Shown here: piece by piece, positions 2,116 to 13,222 of the stretch
How the letters are laid out: every line of letters begins with the position of its first letter
Numbering within the stretch: the first letter of the stretch is position 1
Source of the DNA: Candidatus Bathyarchaeota archaeon B26-1
GTDB lineage: Archaea; Thermoproteota; Bathyarchaeia; Bathyarchaeales; B26-1
NCBI GenBank assembly: GCA_001593925.1
Contig: LUCD01000039.1
Location: 1-15,472, forward strand
Length of the DNA: 15,472 bases
Direction of reading: 5' to 3'
Position numbers and translations under genes: made by a program
The notes under the pieces: model-generated
What the model was told of the DNA's origin: nothing
Seen by the model: only the letters and a program-made list of their open reading frames with translations
Databases searched by the model: none

Positions 2116-3093
2116 CTAGGTTAACTTGGCTCCACAGTTTCCACAGAACTTCATTCCAGGCGGGTTCTTGGCGCCGCACTTCGGGCATGTCTTCTCGGTG
2201 GGCCTCAAGGGGGCTCCACAGTTCCCGCAGAACTTCATTTCAGCAGGATTCTGGGCTCCACACTTAGGGCAGATTATAATCCTTTGAGGTTTCGGGGCTG
2301 GTTTCATCATTTGGGCCATCTGGCTTCCTATAGCGAAGCCTATGCCAGCTCCAACCCCTGCTCCGGCAGCTCCTCCAGCTCCTGGTGGAAGCTCGGCAGC
2401 TGTCTCCTTCATATATTGCATCACCATAGCTTGCTGCCCGATCCCCGTGGCGAACCTTCTAGCTTCTTCAGGTATCTTAACACCTTCAAAGACGCAATCG
2501 ATTACTTTTAGGCCTACCCTTGCAACCTCGTCTCTTATGACCAGTGCGACTTTATCCGTGGTCTCGTCTAGGTTCTTCACTATGTTGAAGATGTCATAGT
2601 GGCCAAACTCATCTATTATACGTTCGTTTATGAAGCCTCTGATGTAGTTCTCGACGTCCCTTGACGTGCTGGCTTCTCTGTTCCCGAAGAACTCAACCAC
2701 AAAGAGCTTTGGATCCTCAACCTTGTAGATTACGTATCCGTAGAATCCGAGTTCAGCCTGGTATCCTATTGGTCCGCTTGGGGCTGAATAGGCCTGCCCG
2801 CCGAAGTTCGCCCTGAACTGGCTGTTGCTGACGAAGATAACTTCACAGCTGAAGATGTCGCCGATTATTCTGAGAGCTCTTAAGGCAGCTGTTAGAAGTG
2901 GTATATTTGCGCTCGTTATCGTATGTCTACCCGGACCTAGAACGTCGTAGGCCTTCCCATCCCTGAAGAAGACTGCCCACTGATTCTCCTTTACTATTAC
3001 CTGACTTCCATACTTCAATGTGAGATTTGGGAACCTGTATGCGATATCCTCTGGACCCGCAAAGTCCCATGAGACCCTCTCGACAATGGGCAT
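2116..3093 (-). CDS. SPFH/band-7 (stomatin/prohibitin/flotillin-like) domain protein with a Gly-rich linker and two C-terminal zinc ribbons (COG4260 / B. subtilis YdjI-like architecture)
   Basis: The N-terminal ~250 aa have SPFH-like composition (QWAVFFRDGKAYDVLGPGRHTI...; helical region EVARVGLKVIDCVFEGVKIPEEARRFATGIGQQAMV). Next comes a Gly/Ala-rich segment, GAGGAAGAGVGAGIGFAIG. The C-terminus carries two copies of CPKCGA-x8-KFCGNCGA. There is a GGAG motif 8 nt upstream of the ATG. Confidence 0.8.
   Translation of the reverse strand: MPIVERVSWDFAGPEDIAYRFPNLTLKYGSQVIVKENQWAVFFRDGKAYDVLGPGRHTITSANIPLLTAALRALRIIGDIFSCEVIFVSNSQFRANFGGQAYSAPSGPIGYQAELGFYGYVIYKVEDPKLFVVEFFGNREASTSRDVENYIRGFINERIIDEFGHYDIFNIVKNLDETTDKVALVIRDEVARVGLKVIDCVFEGVKIPEEARRFATGIGQQAMVMQYMKETAAELPPGAGGAAGAGVGAGIGFAIGSQMAQMMKPAPKPQRIIICPKCGAQNPAEMKFCGNCGAPLRPTEKTCPKCGAKNPPGMKFCGNCGAKLT
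2128..2282. repeat. intragenic tandem direct repeat (~75 to 84 bp unit, ~80% identity) encoding the two zinc ribbons
   Basis: ggctccacagtttccacagaacttcattccagg... at 2128 recurs as ggctccacagttcccgcagaacttcatttcagc... at 2212. Confidence 0.7.
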
Positions 3094-3107: not shown

Positions 3108-3662
3108 TCATAACCTTAAGGGTCTAAAGCGTCTTTCCCTCTCAATCCATCTATCCTCGAGGGAGAGTAATAAATCTTTCACCCTCCTCACATTTGCTGG
3201 AAGCTCACCCCAGTTCTCAGACTCGACATAGCTCTGAACCTTCTCGACCTCATCCTTAAGGCTGTCAATCCGGGATCCCAGCTCCCTGTCATAGTTTAAG
3301 ATCCCAGCCAGCTCCTCCTCTCTTATAGAGCCCTTCCTATCGAAGAGGCCGGCATATCCATAATCTGCATGGTGGATCTTCTCCATAACCCTATCCATAA
3401 CCTGGATCACCTTCTTTAAGTCTCGGGTTGGAGCCTTCACACCGGCCTCCAAGACCGCCAGGTATATATCCTCCCATAAGTGGCGTAGACGTTTAAGATC
3501 CATATAGTAGAGGTCTCGAAGCATCTTGTCGAGTTCCCTCAAATCCTCTTTTGTGCCATAACCCAATGTGAAGAAGTTCTTTATTTCAGAGAGAACCCCT
3601 TGCCTATCCCTCATCTCCTCTACAATATCACGCTTCCGTCTACCCATCTCTTGACACCTCAA
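3108..3662 (-). CDS. hypothetical alpha-helical protein, 184 aa, middle gene of the operon
   Basis: Its ATG overlaps the upstream stop (ATGA coupling) and it ends 14 nt before the SPFH gene. The sequence is charged and helical (coiled-coil-like C-terminus DSLKDEVEKVQSYVESENWGELPANVRRVKDLLLSLEDRWIERERR). I recognise no family. Confidence 0.6.
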   Translation of the reverse strand: MRCQEMGRRKRDIVEEMRDRQGVLSEIKNFFTLGYGTKEDLRELDKMLRDLYYMDLKRLRHLWEDIYLAVLEAGVKAPTRDLKKVIQVMDRVMEKIHHADYGYAGLFDRKGSIREEELAGILNYDRELGSRIDSLKDEVEKVQSYVESENWGELPANVRRVKDLLLSLEDRWIERERRFRPLRL

Positions 3663-5041
3663 ATCAGTTTTATAAGGGGTCTTCCCCCACCTAAAACTTT
3701 ACCTGTAGATCCATCTACAGCCACTGCGTAGTCCCTCTCACCTAACTTGTAATGGACAAACCATACGGGAGCATGGAGGAGCTCGCCCTCGCCGACTCTA
3801 ACTCTGGTGTGGCAGGTCTCTATAGTGTCAACTTCTTCTGAGACAAGCTCCCTCTGCTTGATTTCGACTTCAGCCTTCACCTTATCCTTAGCTTCTTCTT
3901 CGTTCAATTCCGTATTGAAGAACTCTGCATCACTTGGAATCCTTCCAGGATCAAAGGGAATCTTCCTTTCTAGAGGAACCTCGTAATATTTAACATCGCT
4001 CAGCACGGCTCTTCTGGCCAAGACAGTCCAGTCATATTGGCGAGAGATGGTTCTCGAGATTCTCCTGAACGTTGGCCCCCGCTCATAGGCCACATAACCC
4101 TCAATCGCTAACTCGGCCGCGGCCTTCAGGACTTTCCCGAGCTTAACCCAACCTTTCTTTCTCTCATCAGTGACAGCGTGCTTTATCTCACGGAGCTCAG
4201 AGACGCCTAGACCCCTCCTGCCAGTATAGTATGTCTCAGCGTAAGCTGGGAAGATCCAGAAGGGTATATACCTCAACCTTACACCCGTGATCTGAGCTTT
4301 TTCAGCTACTCCTCGACGTAGAACCCCCTTGTCCATGTATTCTTTGGCTATGTCAACAGCCTCCTGTGGATGAAGCTTATTCTCAATCATACTATGTTTC
4401 TTGATCTCCTCACGGGTTGCGACCACAATTGTATTTCCGCAGTATCGACACGTTATGATTACATCCTCCCTGGTCACGTCTAGTGGAGCTCCACATCTTG
4501 TACAGTTCGTTGGGATGGGTTTAACGGCCTGAATTGAAGGGGTCTGAGCTTCCTTTGTTGTGAGTGGTGGGGCGGTAACGGTTGGCGTAGTCCACCTAAC
4601 AACCTCAACTCCAATACTTTTTGTGGTGACATCAGGCCTCTTCTTTACGGCTATGACTCCCTTTGCTTCCCATCTTATCCTTCGATCTGGCTCGAGTGAG
4701 GTTGGCGGGGCATAGTGCGGAATCTTAACTTTAAAGGGAAATTCCTCCTTATATCTTGGAGTAAGGTGAAGTCTTCCGCATACCCTTTCCTTAGTTGACC
4801 ATAAGATCTGAGTGGTTTCCTTCTCTTCCCATCCTTCCTTAGTGTGAACTAGATTCTTAGTTCTTGACCAGCACTTAACCTCAACCCTGACCTCATCCGC
4901 ATCAAACTCTTCTTCCGAGGTTACGTGAAGAGTTCCAGTTAATTCCTCCCCCAAACCGACAACATTCCTGTCTAAAGCTATGAAGACCTTAGCTTTAGGT
5001 TTCGTTACTCTCATCTTAATCTTTTTAAAGAACCCCACCAT
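3659..5041 (-). CDS. arrestin-like (Spo0M-type N-domain) protein with an internal zinc ribbon and a C-terminal duplicated beta-hairpin domain
   Basis: The N-terminus FFKKIK...AKVFIALDRNVVGLGEELTGTLHVTSEEEFDADEVRVEVKCW...FPFKVKIPHYAPPT matches the Spo0M (sporulation-control, arrestin-like beta-sandwich) pattern. A zinc ribbon CTRCGAPL-x12-CRYCG follows. The C-terminal domain has two related hairpin motifs (RYIPFWIFPAYAETYYTGRRG and HAPVWFVHYKLGERDYAVAVDGSTGKV). The ORF track starts at 5059, but the TATA centred near 5080 places the transcription start near 5053, so the ATG at 5041 (MVGFFKK) is the more likely start. Confidence 0.72.
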   Translation of the reverse strand: MVGFFKKIKMRVTKPKAKVFIALDRNVVGLGEELTGTLHVTSEEEFDADEVRVEVKCWSRTKNLVHTKEGWEEKETTQILWSTKERVCGRLHLTPRYKEEFPFKVKIPHYAPPTSLEPDRRIRWEAKGVIAVKKRPDVTTKSIGVEVVRWTTPTVTAPPLTTKEAQTPSIQAVKPIPTNCTRCGAPLDVTREDVIITCRYCGNTIVVATREEIKKHSMIENKLHPQEAVDIAKEYMDKGVLRRGVAEKAQITGVRLRYIPFWIFPAYAETYYTGRRGLGVSELREIKHAVTDERKKGWVKLGKVLKAAAELAIEGYVAYERGPTFRRISRTISRQYDWTVLARRAVLSDVKYYEVPLERKIPFDPGRIPSDAEFFNTELNEEEAKDKVKAEVEIKQRELVSEEVDTIETCHTRVRVGEGELLHAPVWFVHYKLGERDYAVAVDGSTGKVLGGGRPLIKLI

Positions 5042-5070
5042 AAATATCTCCCTGTTCATAGTATTAAAAA

Positions 5071-5090
5071 TTTATTTTATAAAATTTTTG
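5071..5090. promoter_or_regulatory. near-palindromic AT-rich TATA element (TTTATTTTATAAAATTTTT) in a divergent intergenic region
   Basis: This is the only strongly AT-rich stretch between the minus operon start (5041) and the plus gene at 5247. It is positioned about 30 nt upstream of the 5041 ATG on the minus strand. Confidence 0.4.
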
Positions 5091-5246: not shown

Positions 5247-5507
5247 ATGTCTCAGCCTCAAAGAGTGGAAGGTCCTGAGGAAAGAATCTCGATTGAAGGG
5301 GCGTTCTTATGCCCTTTCTGCGGTGCCCCTTATAGGAAGTTGATCCCATCCGGCACAGTCCAAGTTAGGTGCGAATATTGTGGAGCCATGATCTTGGTTC
5401 CACCTAGGCTGAGGGAGGTTCAGCGGTGCCCAAACCATCCAGACAGGGTCTCGGTCGGGATATGTAACGACTGCGGTAAGGGCTTGACTGCCTCACCGTC
5501 ATGGTGA
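5247..5507 (+). CDS. small zinc-finger protein, 86 aa, with a zinc ribbon plus a B-box-like second finger
   Basis: CPFCGAPYRKLIPSGTVQVRCEYCG forms a CxxC...CxxC ribbon, followed by RCPNHPDRVSVGICNDCGKGL (C-x2-H...C-x2-C). A TATA-like ACTTTTATTCAATA lies about 25 nt upstream. The stop overlaps the next gene start (ATGGTGA). Confidence 0.55.
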   Translation: MSQPQRVEGPEERISIEGAFLCPFCGAPYRKLIPSGTVQVRCEYCGAMILVPPRLREVQRCPNHPDRVSVGICNDCGKGLTASPSW

Positions 5508-6244
5508 TTTCAGAATCCAGCGAAGGGACTGCGATCAGATACCTATGCCCAGACTGCCTGAGGAAGAAGAAGAGCGGCGAGGCAGCAGCTCCATTTTTAA
5601 TATTACTTCCCTCCTTAATTTTAGCTTGGTTTTTCCTACTGATTAAAGCTATAGTCCCCTTAATTTTTATAATAGCATACTCCTTCTTCGCCGCCATCGC
5701 ATTATCCTCCTCTAAAAGTGCGTATGAGGGTCTGCCGACGTTCAATATGCTCATGAAGAAGATGTTGGAGCTGAGGAGAAGAGTTGAGGTGATTAAGGCT
5801 AAGATGAGCGAGGAGGAGGTTGAGAGGCTCTACTCTACCCTTAAGAGGAAAGACCTCGTCACAGACCCATACACGGGGAGGTACATGTATAGAGAGGACA
5901 TCGACAATACCATCAAGAAGTATATGCGGTCAGGCCTCACAAGGAGGGAAGCCGTGATACAGTTAGCCATCGAGAAAGGTATCCCGTTGAGGCCCGGCTT
6001 ACACATCCCCCCAACCATATATGATGCTTTCTCCGAGCTGAAGAGGGAAATAAAGAAGGAGATGGCTAAAGCTGTTAGGGTAGGGAGCCATGAAGAGGAG
6101 TACGAGCGGCTAATAGACAAGTACAGCAGAATCTACGGCCGGAGCAGATACGCCCTCGAACACAAGATAGAGGAGTACATGATGGGAGGCCTAAGCAGGG
6201 AGGAAGCGATAAGGGTACTTGCAGAGGAGGAAGGAGTGACCTAA
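5501..6244 (+). CDS. membrane protein, 247 aa: N-terminal CPDC motif, two predicted TM helices, then tandem ~40-aa helical repeats
   Basis: Hydrophobic PFLILLPSLILAWFFLLIKAIVPLIFIIAYSFFAAIAL. The two repeats are DPYTGRYMYREDIDNTIKKYMRSGLTRREAVIQLAIEKGIP and YSRIYGRSRYALEHKIEEYMMGGLSREEAIRVLAEEEGVT, sharing YxGR..Y.......YM..GL.R.EA....LA.E.G. It is translationally coupled to 5247..5507. Confidence 0.6.
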   Translation: MVISESSEGTAIRYLCPDCLRKKKSGEAAAPFLILLPSLILAWFFLLIKAIVPLIFIIAYSFFAAIALSSSKSAYEGLPTFNMLMKKMLELRRRVEVIKAKMSEEEVERLYSTLKRKDLVTDPYTGRYMYREDIDNTIKKYMRSGLTRREAVIQLAIEKGIPLRPGLHIPPTIYDAFSELKREIKKEMAKAVRVGSHEEEYERLIDKYSRIYGRSRYALEHKIEEYMMGGLSREEAIRVLAEEEGVT

Positions 6245-6607
6245 ACTACGTGGCAAAGGCCGGTTTCCCAAACGTGAAGGCGTCATGGCGCCGCCTGCTC
6301 AAGATCACTCGCAGAAAAAGTTCATGAAGAAACGGCACGGCTGGAAGGATCAGCTTCCACACTTTCCGCCACTGTGAGGCAACCATACTCTACCGCCAGA
6401 CCAAAGACATCCCGTATGTAATGAGGTTTCTATTTCTAGACCACAAGAACATAAAGAACACTTTGATCTACGTGCAGCTTGAGGAAGCCCTCTTCAAAAA
6501 CGGGAACATAGAGTTCATCTGCAAAGCGGCTAAAACAGTTGAGGAGGCTAAAGCCTTAATCGAGGGAGTTCAACTCTTCAGAAAGAGAAAGTGTCGCGGT
6601 GAATCCG

Positions 6608-6684
6608 TGGTGCCGCGGGGGAGACTTGAACTCCCGACAGCCCGGTCTTCAGCCGGGTGCTCTCCCAGTCTGAGCTACCGCGGC
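6608..6684 (-). tRNA. tRNA-Phe: tRNA-Phe (anticodon GAA), 77 nt including an encoded 3' CCA, no intron
   Basis: The minus-strand sequence folds as a cloverleaf by hand: GCCGCGG-TA-GCTC-AGACTGGGA-GAGC-A-CCCGG-CTGAAGA-CCGGG-CTGTC-GGGAG-TTCAAGT-CTCCC-CCGCGGC-A-CCA. The 7-bp acceptor stem is perfect, the anticodon loop is CT-GAA-GA, and the T-loop is TTCAAGT. A pyrimidine tract (ctttctctttct on the minus strand) follows the 3' end. Confidence 0.92.
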
Positions 6685-6918
6685 CTTTCGGTCAAGATAA
6701 TCTAATGGGTTCCTCTTATCTTTAAATTTTTTGCGGGCTTGGCACACGGTAGCCGGGATCGAGGCCGATGTCTCCCCTTAACATGTCAGAACGCGCCAAT
6801 TTTGGAGCTCTCTCTATCCAAAAGGAGTAGACCCCTCTATATTTTTTGCCTCCGCGGCTCCAGATTCGGCCTTCTTGGGACACCTCTCTGGAAGGGTTGA
6901 AGCGACGGGCCTCATCCA

Positions 6919-12668: not shown

Positions 12669-12687
12669 AAACTTTTCTTTCGGCTTT
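12669..12687. terminator. T-rich tract (aacttttctttcggcttt) between convergent genes
   Basis: Pyrimidine/T-rich run immediately after the GPN GTPase stop, overlapping the stop of the convergent minus-strand gene. It is typical of an archaeal intrinsic terminator. Confidence 0.35.
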
Positions 12688-13222
12688 AAGAAGCGTACAC
12701 TACTCCTCCGAGCCTCTCCTCCCTCTCTGCAGCCGCGACGGGAGCCCTCTCCTCCACTCTGGCCGGGCTTATCCTCAGCCCCACATATCCAGCTATGAAG
12801 GCTGAGACGGGCTCGAAGGAGTATAAGATGACATCGTGTATTTGGGGAATCCAGTGCGTGTTGTAGGGTTCACCCGCCATGGCGAATGTTCCTAAAACCA
12901 AGCCTCCTAAGATTCCGTTTGCGAAGAGGTAGACAGTGAAGGCTACGATCAGGGCGTCCTTGATCTCCCGCACCCTGTATATGTATATGACGAAGATGGC
13001 GGAGGCGAAGGACGGCAGAAAGTACAGGTTTACCTCTGGGGGTGAAAGGATGAAGATCATAACTGAGATGAGCGCGCCGAAGACTCCCGCACTTAAATCC
13101 TTCATAACCAAGTTCATGCCTACGGGCCTGAACTTGATGCGGGTTCCACAGTTAGGGCAGAACCTAAGATTCTCATCTTTAGGTAACGGGGTCCCACATC
13201 TTGGGCAACGGGGCATCAACAA
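12686..13222 (-). CDS. membrane protein with an N-terminal zinc ribbon, 178 aa
   Basis: CPRCGTPLPKDENLRFCPNCG ribbon followed by about 4 hydrophobic helices. The palindromic TATA GTTTATAAATAC at 13249-13258 sits about 27 nt upstream of the ATG, giving a leaderless start. Confidence 0.6.
   Translation of the reverse strand: MLMPRCPRCGTPLPKDENLRFCPNCGTRIKFRPVGMNLVMKDLSAGVFGALISVMIFILSPPEVNLYFLPSFASAIFVIYIYRVREIKDALIVAFTVYLFANGILGGLVLGTFAMAGEPYNTHWIPQIHDVILYSFEPVSAFIAGYVGLRISPARVEERAPVAAAEREERLGGVVYAS

Follow-up and report, generated by a model that had tools for sequence, protein, structure and literature searches.

An archaeal YdjG-family protein with an arrestin-like head and no membrane anchor, encoded in a three-gene cassette with a YdjI-like SPFH protein

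Introduction

To our knowledge, YdjG and YdjI have until now been studied in Bacillus only, where they assist the PspA stress response as membrane-anchored proteins, and we know of neither a Pfam family nor a solved structure for the YdjG core. In Bacillus, the recruitment of soluble YdjI to the membrane, and of PspA through YdjI, requires YdjG and YdjH as membrane anchors; YdjG binds YdjH, which in turn binds YdjI and PspA (PMC8581546). Here we describe an archaeal locus in which two of three genes encode homologues of YdjG and YdjI of this pspA-ydjGHI envelope-stress operon. It lies in a window (the whole stretch of DNA analysed) of 15,472 nucleotides (nt), contig LUCD01000039.1 of Candidatus Bathyarchaeota archaeon B26-1. 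The first gene of the cassette specifies a protein of 460 amino acids (aa), whose unusual domain architecture had been pointed out in a first-pass annotation made from the DNA letters.

Results

The 460-aa protein consists of an N-terminal head, a linker, a zinc ribbon and a core, and is followed by two further genes on the same strand.

3659..5041, minus strand: coding sequence of the 460-aa protein, stop codon included (arrestin-N-like head, Thr/Pro linker, zinc ribbon, YdjG-type core)
4592..5041, minus strand: residues 1-150, single-lobe β-sandwich resembling arrestin-N and Spo0M
4508..4594, minus strand: residues ~150-178, Thr/Pro-rich linker, sequence RWTTPTVTAPPLTTKEAQTPSIQAVKPIP
4436..4504, minus strand: residues 180-202, zinc ribbon CTRCG (180-184)-x13-CRYCG (198-202)
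4019..4420, minus strand: YdjG-core unit 1, residues ~208-341; in the model, a helix, the long 'RYIPFW' β-hairpin, a low-confidence helical insert (~280-321) and another strand
3677..3928, minus strand: YdjG-core unit 2, residues ~372-455; in the model, a helix and a four-stranded sheet with 'HAPVWFVHY' and 'VDGSTGKV', then the LGGGRP tail
3108..3647, minus strand: middle gene (MID), 179 aa, beginning 11 nt past the stop codon for the 460-aa protein; its start follows that of P0268 (97% identical)
2116..3093, minus strand: third gene, 325 aa, 14 nt past MID; Band_7_1 SPFH domain, Gly/Ala-rich segment and two C-terminal zinc ribbons (YdjI-like)

The core links the protein to YdjG. For comparison we used YdjG from the B. 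stercoris locus L006, the pspA-ydjGHI locus of close B. subtilis relatives having been retrieved by means of the published ydjG primer (PMC8581546). Searching the core profile against this sequence with hmmsearch gave 49.1 bits, profile positions 4-97 aligning with YdjG 55-151 (33.8 bits) and 187-274 with YdjG 219-306, and hhalign gave 96.5%. The match is co-linear across both halves of the core, and a CxxC...CxxC ribbon stands immediately N-terminal to it, as is typical of the YdjG family. The first-pass annotation had proposed comparing the hairpin domain with domains encoded beside PspA or SPFH genes in bacteria, such as YdjG/YdjH-type proteins; the comparison gave this match to YdjG. A profile of zinc ribbon plus core (A2), searched against 1.84 billion entries, retrieved 1658 cluster representatives at E<=1e-3 and 215 at E<=1e-10. 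The family so defined spans archaeal-type and Firmicute-type genomic contexts. Most of its distant members carry one or two N-terminal zinc ribbons, the core and one to three C-terminal hydrophobic segments (by a crude hydropathy measure); cluster look-ups of these members returned no function names. At one locus (L009, 331..2431) a membrane-anchored member, P0147, and a paralogue scoring 63 bits against the core profile are arranged in tandem, and some lineages therefore use paired YdjG-like proteins. At another (L097, 5001..6880) the Firmicute-type YdjG-like gene P0219 precedes a TPM_phosphatase (YdjH-like) gene, and the vicinity contains neither a Band_7 nor a PspA gene; G and H can therefore occur as a pair where I and PspA are missing.

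The C-terminal region had also been proposed to be an internally duplicated fold, and profile comparison upholds the proposal. The model of residues 170-460 (mean predicted local distance difference test [pLDDT] score 82.6, predicted template modelling [pTM] score 0.72) consists of two units, each a helix followed by a long β-hairpin with a P-x-W motif, with the low-confidence helical insert between them. The hairpin motifs lie at residues 257-262 (RYIPFW), 271-277 (YYTGRRG), 423-428 (HAPVWF) and 442-449 (VDGSTGKV). Profiles of the two units, built from more than 200 family members, align mutually with 91% probability (E 1.1e-6), pairing helix with helix and 'RYIPFWIF' with 'HAPVWFVH'. This alignment supports a core made of two related units, each a helix plus 'P-x-W' hairpin. 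The units are probably of PepSY/YpeB-like type, PepSY domains (YpeB, YpmB, FoxB) being among their nearest known counterparts. Residues 205-460 fall within no family of Pfam or NCBIfam. Of the searches against the PDB, Foldseek with the C-domain returned nothing significant (E of at least 0.3), and a sequence search with the whole protein yielded noise only. A membrane-binding amphipathic helix in the low-confidence insert (~299-321) was considered and dropped, its hydrophobic moment not being outstanding.

Another reading makes the C-domain a classical extracytoplasmic PepSY-type module that inhibits or regulates a protease or senses the state of the envelope, in a protein acting outside the cell. 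Sub-threshold PepSY (PF03413) matches occur in 14 of 99 family members (best E 0.0013), and Pfam gives none for the 460-aa protein itself. Against an outside location, the protein has neither signal peptide nor transmembrane helix, its zinc ribbon and arrestin-like domain are modules of cytoplasmic type, and anchored family members carry ribbon and core ahead of a C-terminal anchor, which implies that these parts lie in the cytoplasm. We regard such a location as highly improbable.

Among related metagenome loci with enough downstream DNA, the MID gene lies downstream in 61 of 62 and the SPFH gene in 51 of 52. The same three-gene order was found in two genome or metagenome loci, one for each main head type (see below), and is kept in cassettes whose core is ~35% identical, one of which adjoins an archaeal L7Ae-S28e-L24e-NDK-IF5B gene cluster. 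Because the flanking genes differ from locus to locus, we define the cassette as exactly these three genes. The third protein matches Band_7_1 (1.1e-22) and Zn_Ribbon_1 (2.9e-18) in Pfam, and its residues 7-296 align with Bacillus YdjI (E 1e-15, 22% identity); as in a pspA-ydjGHI-type operon, a Band_7_1 plus zinc-ribbon protein is thus encoded close to the YdjG-type protein.

MID is a new partner. It has 933 homologues and no match in Pfam, NCBIfam or a PDB profile search, and hhalign against PspA, YdjH, YdjI and YdjG was likewise empty. It shows neither a TPM match nor similarity to YdjH, so that the adjacent TPM-domain membrane protein of the Bacillus operon has no counterpart here. Weak Pfam matches to Barstar in 9 of 32 homologues (best E 3.9e-5; some are annotated 'barstar') were not accepted as an assignment. 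The distant cassettes L092 and L094 have homologous middle genes (about 46 bits), and strongly conserved motifs of MID recur in distant cassettes, G-Y-G-T-K-E-D-L-R-E-L-D close to its N-terminal end and H-A-D-Y-G-Y-A-G-L in the middle of the chain. In L092 the YdjG-like gene and the middle gene are separated by a gene (6257..6568) for a 103-aa multi-pass membrane protein, which may be the membrane anchor in that lineage.

SPFH proteins are found in some defence contexts, and one might picture an anti-virus or pore-forming defence module built around the third protein. The long β-hairpins of the core do align in Foldseek, with low probability, to aerolysin and lysenin pores and to phage portal proteins. 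These alignments, however, have probabilities of 0.01-0.04 and TM-scores of at most 0.15, PADLOC matches none of the three proteins, and the neighbours are housekeeping genes that differ by locus rather than defence islands. Of the readings we weighed, this one seems the most far-fetched.

The head was predicted by the first-pass annotation to be an arrestin-like β-sandwich of the Spo0M pattern. The fold is as predicted: the head forms an arrestin-type β-sandwich, and the 460-aa protein matches both Arrestin_N (26.4 bits; Pfam gathering cut-off 24.9) and Spo0M (25.3 bits; cut-off 23). Most full-length homologues have a precomputed PF00339 match, and the family sequence profile also reaches ARRD-6 (E 0.0035). 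The head carries the MVGFFKK start (at 5041), AKVFIALD..GLGEELTGTLHV..VRVEVK and FPFKVKIPHYAPPT. Its sandwich stops at about residue 148, where linker and zinc ribbon follow, and so lacks the two-lobe layout of canonical arrestins and Vps26; the model has pLDDT values of 55-60 at the end of this domain. The Spo0M profile is matched at positions 1-110 of 213 only and the C-terminal half of Spo0M is absent, so that the protein lacks the full-length profile of the Spo0M family proper. A homologue search with the N-domain alone gave three matches only, of 107-263 aa, from which the origin of the head is not traceable.

One could nevertheless suppose that the N-domain sets the biology, the protein being a Spo0M-type regulator or a generic arrestin-like adaptor (for instance one that regulates development, or serves a protease as substrate or adaptor) to which the YdjG-like part and the SPFH neighbour are secondary. 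Besides the partial Spo0M match, the pattern of conservation speaks against this. The head is the least conserved part of the protein (28-36% identity, versus 50-56% for the core). In 80 related loci, the core within its cassette bears the arrestin-like head in 31, a ~100-aa domain that starts MARYQGLGV and has no Pfam match in 43, and a short extra zinc ribbon in 5; other heads thus replace the N-domain in 48 of the 80, with core and cassette unchanged. Core and cassette are therefore the constant functional unit, and a primary role for the N-domain is in our view rather improbable.

The linker is flexible. It varies in length and sequence between homologues and is modelled with low confidence: where the N-domain model ends, pLDDT is 55-60, and where the C-domain model begins, it is 69. 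In the ribbon and core that follow, 120 homologues show no variation in the four ribbon cysteines, P-F-W, H-x-P-x-W..Y or the terminal L-G-G-G-x-P, and the profile search uncovered a large family; these motifs are therefore not due to chance. Across the broad family, represented by 99 aligned distant relatives, two of the ribbon cysteines (C11 and C29) never vary and the remaining two hardly do. All the motifs listed by the first-pass annotation were found once the region was read on the minus strand, which it had left unstated; two distances need adjustment, the ribbon spacer being 13 residues and not 12, and the hairpins lying 166 aa apart and not ~170.

The ribbon itself could be taken as the mark of a nucleic-acid-binding protein or transcription factor. 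It gives weak matches to the RPAB4, PriA and TFIIB ribbons, JGI names homologues 'DNA-directed RNA polymerase subunit RPC12/RpoP', and the zinc ribbon of YdjG has been termed a DNA-binding TF_Zn_Ribbon (PMC9239133). Yet these matches cover the ~25-residue ribbon only and fall below curated cut-offs (all Pfam matches to the ribbon are sub-threshold), and the protein has no helix-turn-helix or other nucleic-acid-binding domain. Moreover, the SPFH partner bears ribbons of like kind, and the ribbon belongs, in the majority of the family, to a membrane-anchored protein. A nucleic-acid-binding role is therefore very unlikely.

In none of the three cassette proteins was a transmembrane helix found. 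The 460-aa protein, whose maximal 19-residue hydropathy is 0.79, lacks the C-terminal transmembrane anchor that most of the YdjG family has, Bacillus YdjG included.

The longest open reading frame (ORF) at this place spans 3659..5059 (466 aa), six codons more at the 5' end than the frame that opens with the ATG at 5041. Two elements read directly from the sequence lie upstream of this ATG.

5048..5052, minus strand: Shine-Dalgarno-like GGGAG, 6 nt 5' of the 5041 ATG
5075..5084, minus strand: TATA-like box TTTTATAAAA, ~35-40 nt 5' of the 5041 ATG and ahead of the cassette

We prefer the start at 5041 (MVGFFKK) to that at 5059 because of GGGAG and TTTTATAAAA, because an identical database protein, P0001, begins at this ATG, and because homologues open with the matching F-x-K-F-K pattern. 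The TTTTATAAAA box is a putative archaeal promoter.

Elsewhere in the window, a 247-aa ORF (5501..6244, plus strand) diverges from the cassette. Its N-terminus bears a CxxC, and besides a single hydrophobic stretch it contains GLTRREAVIQLAIEKGI and GLSREEAIRVLAEEEGV, two repeats of ~20 aa. It gives weak Pfam and NCBIfam matches only, and is absent upstream of the cassette in L001 and L003. A tRNA-Phe (GAA) occupies 6608..6684 on the minus strand; since the 94-aa ORF at 6421..6705 (plus strand) reads through it, that ORF is probably not a gene. Farther along, 12686..13222 (minus strand) encodes a 178-aa protein with an N-terminal zinc ribbon and several hydrophobic segments, which has a weak match, below cut-off, to the SpoIIGA-like Peptidase_U4.

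Discussion

The anatomy and homology described above are solid: an arrestin-N-like head on an anchor-less YdjG-family protein, whose conserved cassette also encodes a YdjI-like SPFH protein and, between the two, a new partner. Since the 460-aa protein is the product of the first gene of a conserved cassette that ends in a YdjI-like SPFH (flotillin-type) protein, it probably acts as an adaptor for a membrane-scaffold system. We consider it reasonably probable that it is a soluble multi-domain adaptor, the first of three subunits in an archaeal module of Bathyarchaeia type.

The mechanism we infer for the module as a whole is as follows. The YdjG-type core would be the constant part and would join the SPFH protein, probably through MID, which is placed where YdjH, the YdjG-YdjI bridge, sits in Bacillus. 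The N-terminal head (arrestin-like, ~100-aa domain or extra zinc ribbon) would be an exchangeable targeting or input module. By binding a client, be it a membrane protein, a lipid surface or something else, the arrestin-like head would make up for the lost anchor, and the SPFH scaffold would thereby be placed at sites needing membrane maintenance or stress repair.

Several observations call for caution here. No PspA match was found in the cassette genes or their immediate neighbours, and SPFH neighbours are missing in several distant family members. Furthermore, the nearest relatives of the core (67-70% identity) are stand-alone short forms. The core of the window protein is nearer to these, encoded in the metagenome loci L012 and L013, than to the other arrestin-type proteins (~52-55%), a pattern that suggests head exchange or a paralogous origin. 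Both are short double-zinc-ribbon forms without an arrestin head. In L012 (751..1767) neither the middle gene nor the SPFH gene lies downstream, and a DUF4184/YdjM-like membrane hydrolase follows; L013 includes too little downstream DNA to judge.

A more specific version of the adaptor proposal holds that the arrestin-fold head is a true cargo or target adaptor, recognising a membrane protein or a membrane state and bringing the SPFH scaffold there. We think this unlikely, even if it would add to the interest of the finding. Were it correct, an archaeal system would follow the logic of eukaryotic α-arrestin and Vps26 adaptors, coupling cargo recognition to membrane-remodelling machinery, and the exchangeable heads would define different targets for a single engine of YdjG core, middle protein and SPFH protein.

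Each piece of this system is of a known kind (arrestin clan, YdjG, YdjI/Band_7_1, zinc ribbons). The first-pass annotation, whose interpretation as a whole is supported by the present results, had held the fusion of an arrestin-like domain to a zinc ribbon to be undescribed. We found no description of it in the searchable literature, nor of a YdjG core joined to an arrestin-like lobe, of anchor loss, of heads that can be exchanged or of the conserved 179-aa partner. The YdjG core emerges as a large family, represented by 1658 clusters, with a signature of two P-x-W hairpin units following a zinc ribbon. Its archaeal version is anchor-less and has swappable heads, one of them arrestin-like, and it is tied to an SPFH protein and a new 179-aa partner. 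The result is a compact, soluble three-protein system for studying how YdjG-type proteins engage SPFH scaffolds, and a concrete setting for asking what a prokaryotic arrestin-fold domain binds.

The locus differs from each of its described counterparts in a characteristic way. With the arrestin clan (Pfam CL0135), which includes the N-lobe of α-arrestins (ARRDC3, TXNIP), Vps26 and bacterial Spo0M, the head has the β-sandwich fold in common. Arrestins and Vps26, however, are two-lobed, while the head is a single lobe (~150 aa) to which a zinc ribbon and a YdjG core are fused and from which the C-terminal half of Spo0M is missing. The third protein and B. subtilis YdjI are alike in their soluble SPFH domain, low-complexity Gly/Ala/Met-rich segment and C-terminal zinc ribbons; the archaeal protein has two full ribbons and is 22% identical. 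In contrast to the pspA-ydjGHI operon, the cassette has an unrelated 179-aa neighbour in place of the TPM-domain YdjH and contains no pspA. Unlike B. subtilis YdjG, the 460-aa protein is devoid of a C-terminal membrane helix, has one zinc ribbon instead of two, carries an added N-terminal arrestin-like domain and comes from an archaeal host. In YdjG, as here, a zinc ribbon stands right before a core with 'IPFW' and 'LPVW...NGQTGKV' hairpins, and the gene is linked to that of a YdjI-type Band_7_1 and zinc-ribbon protein.
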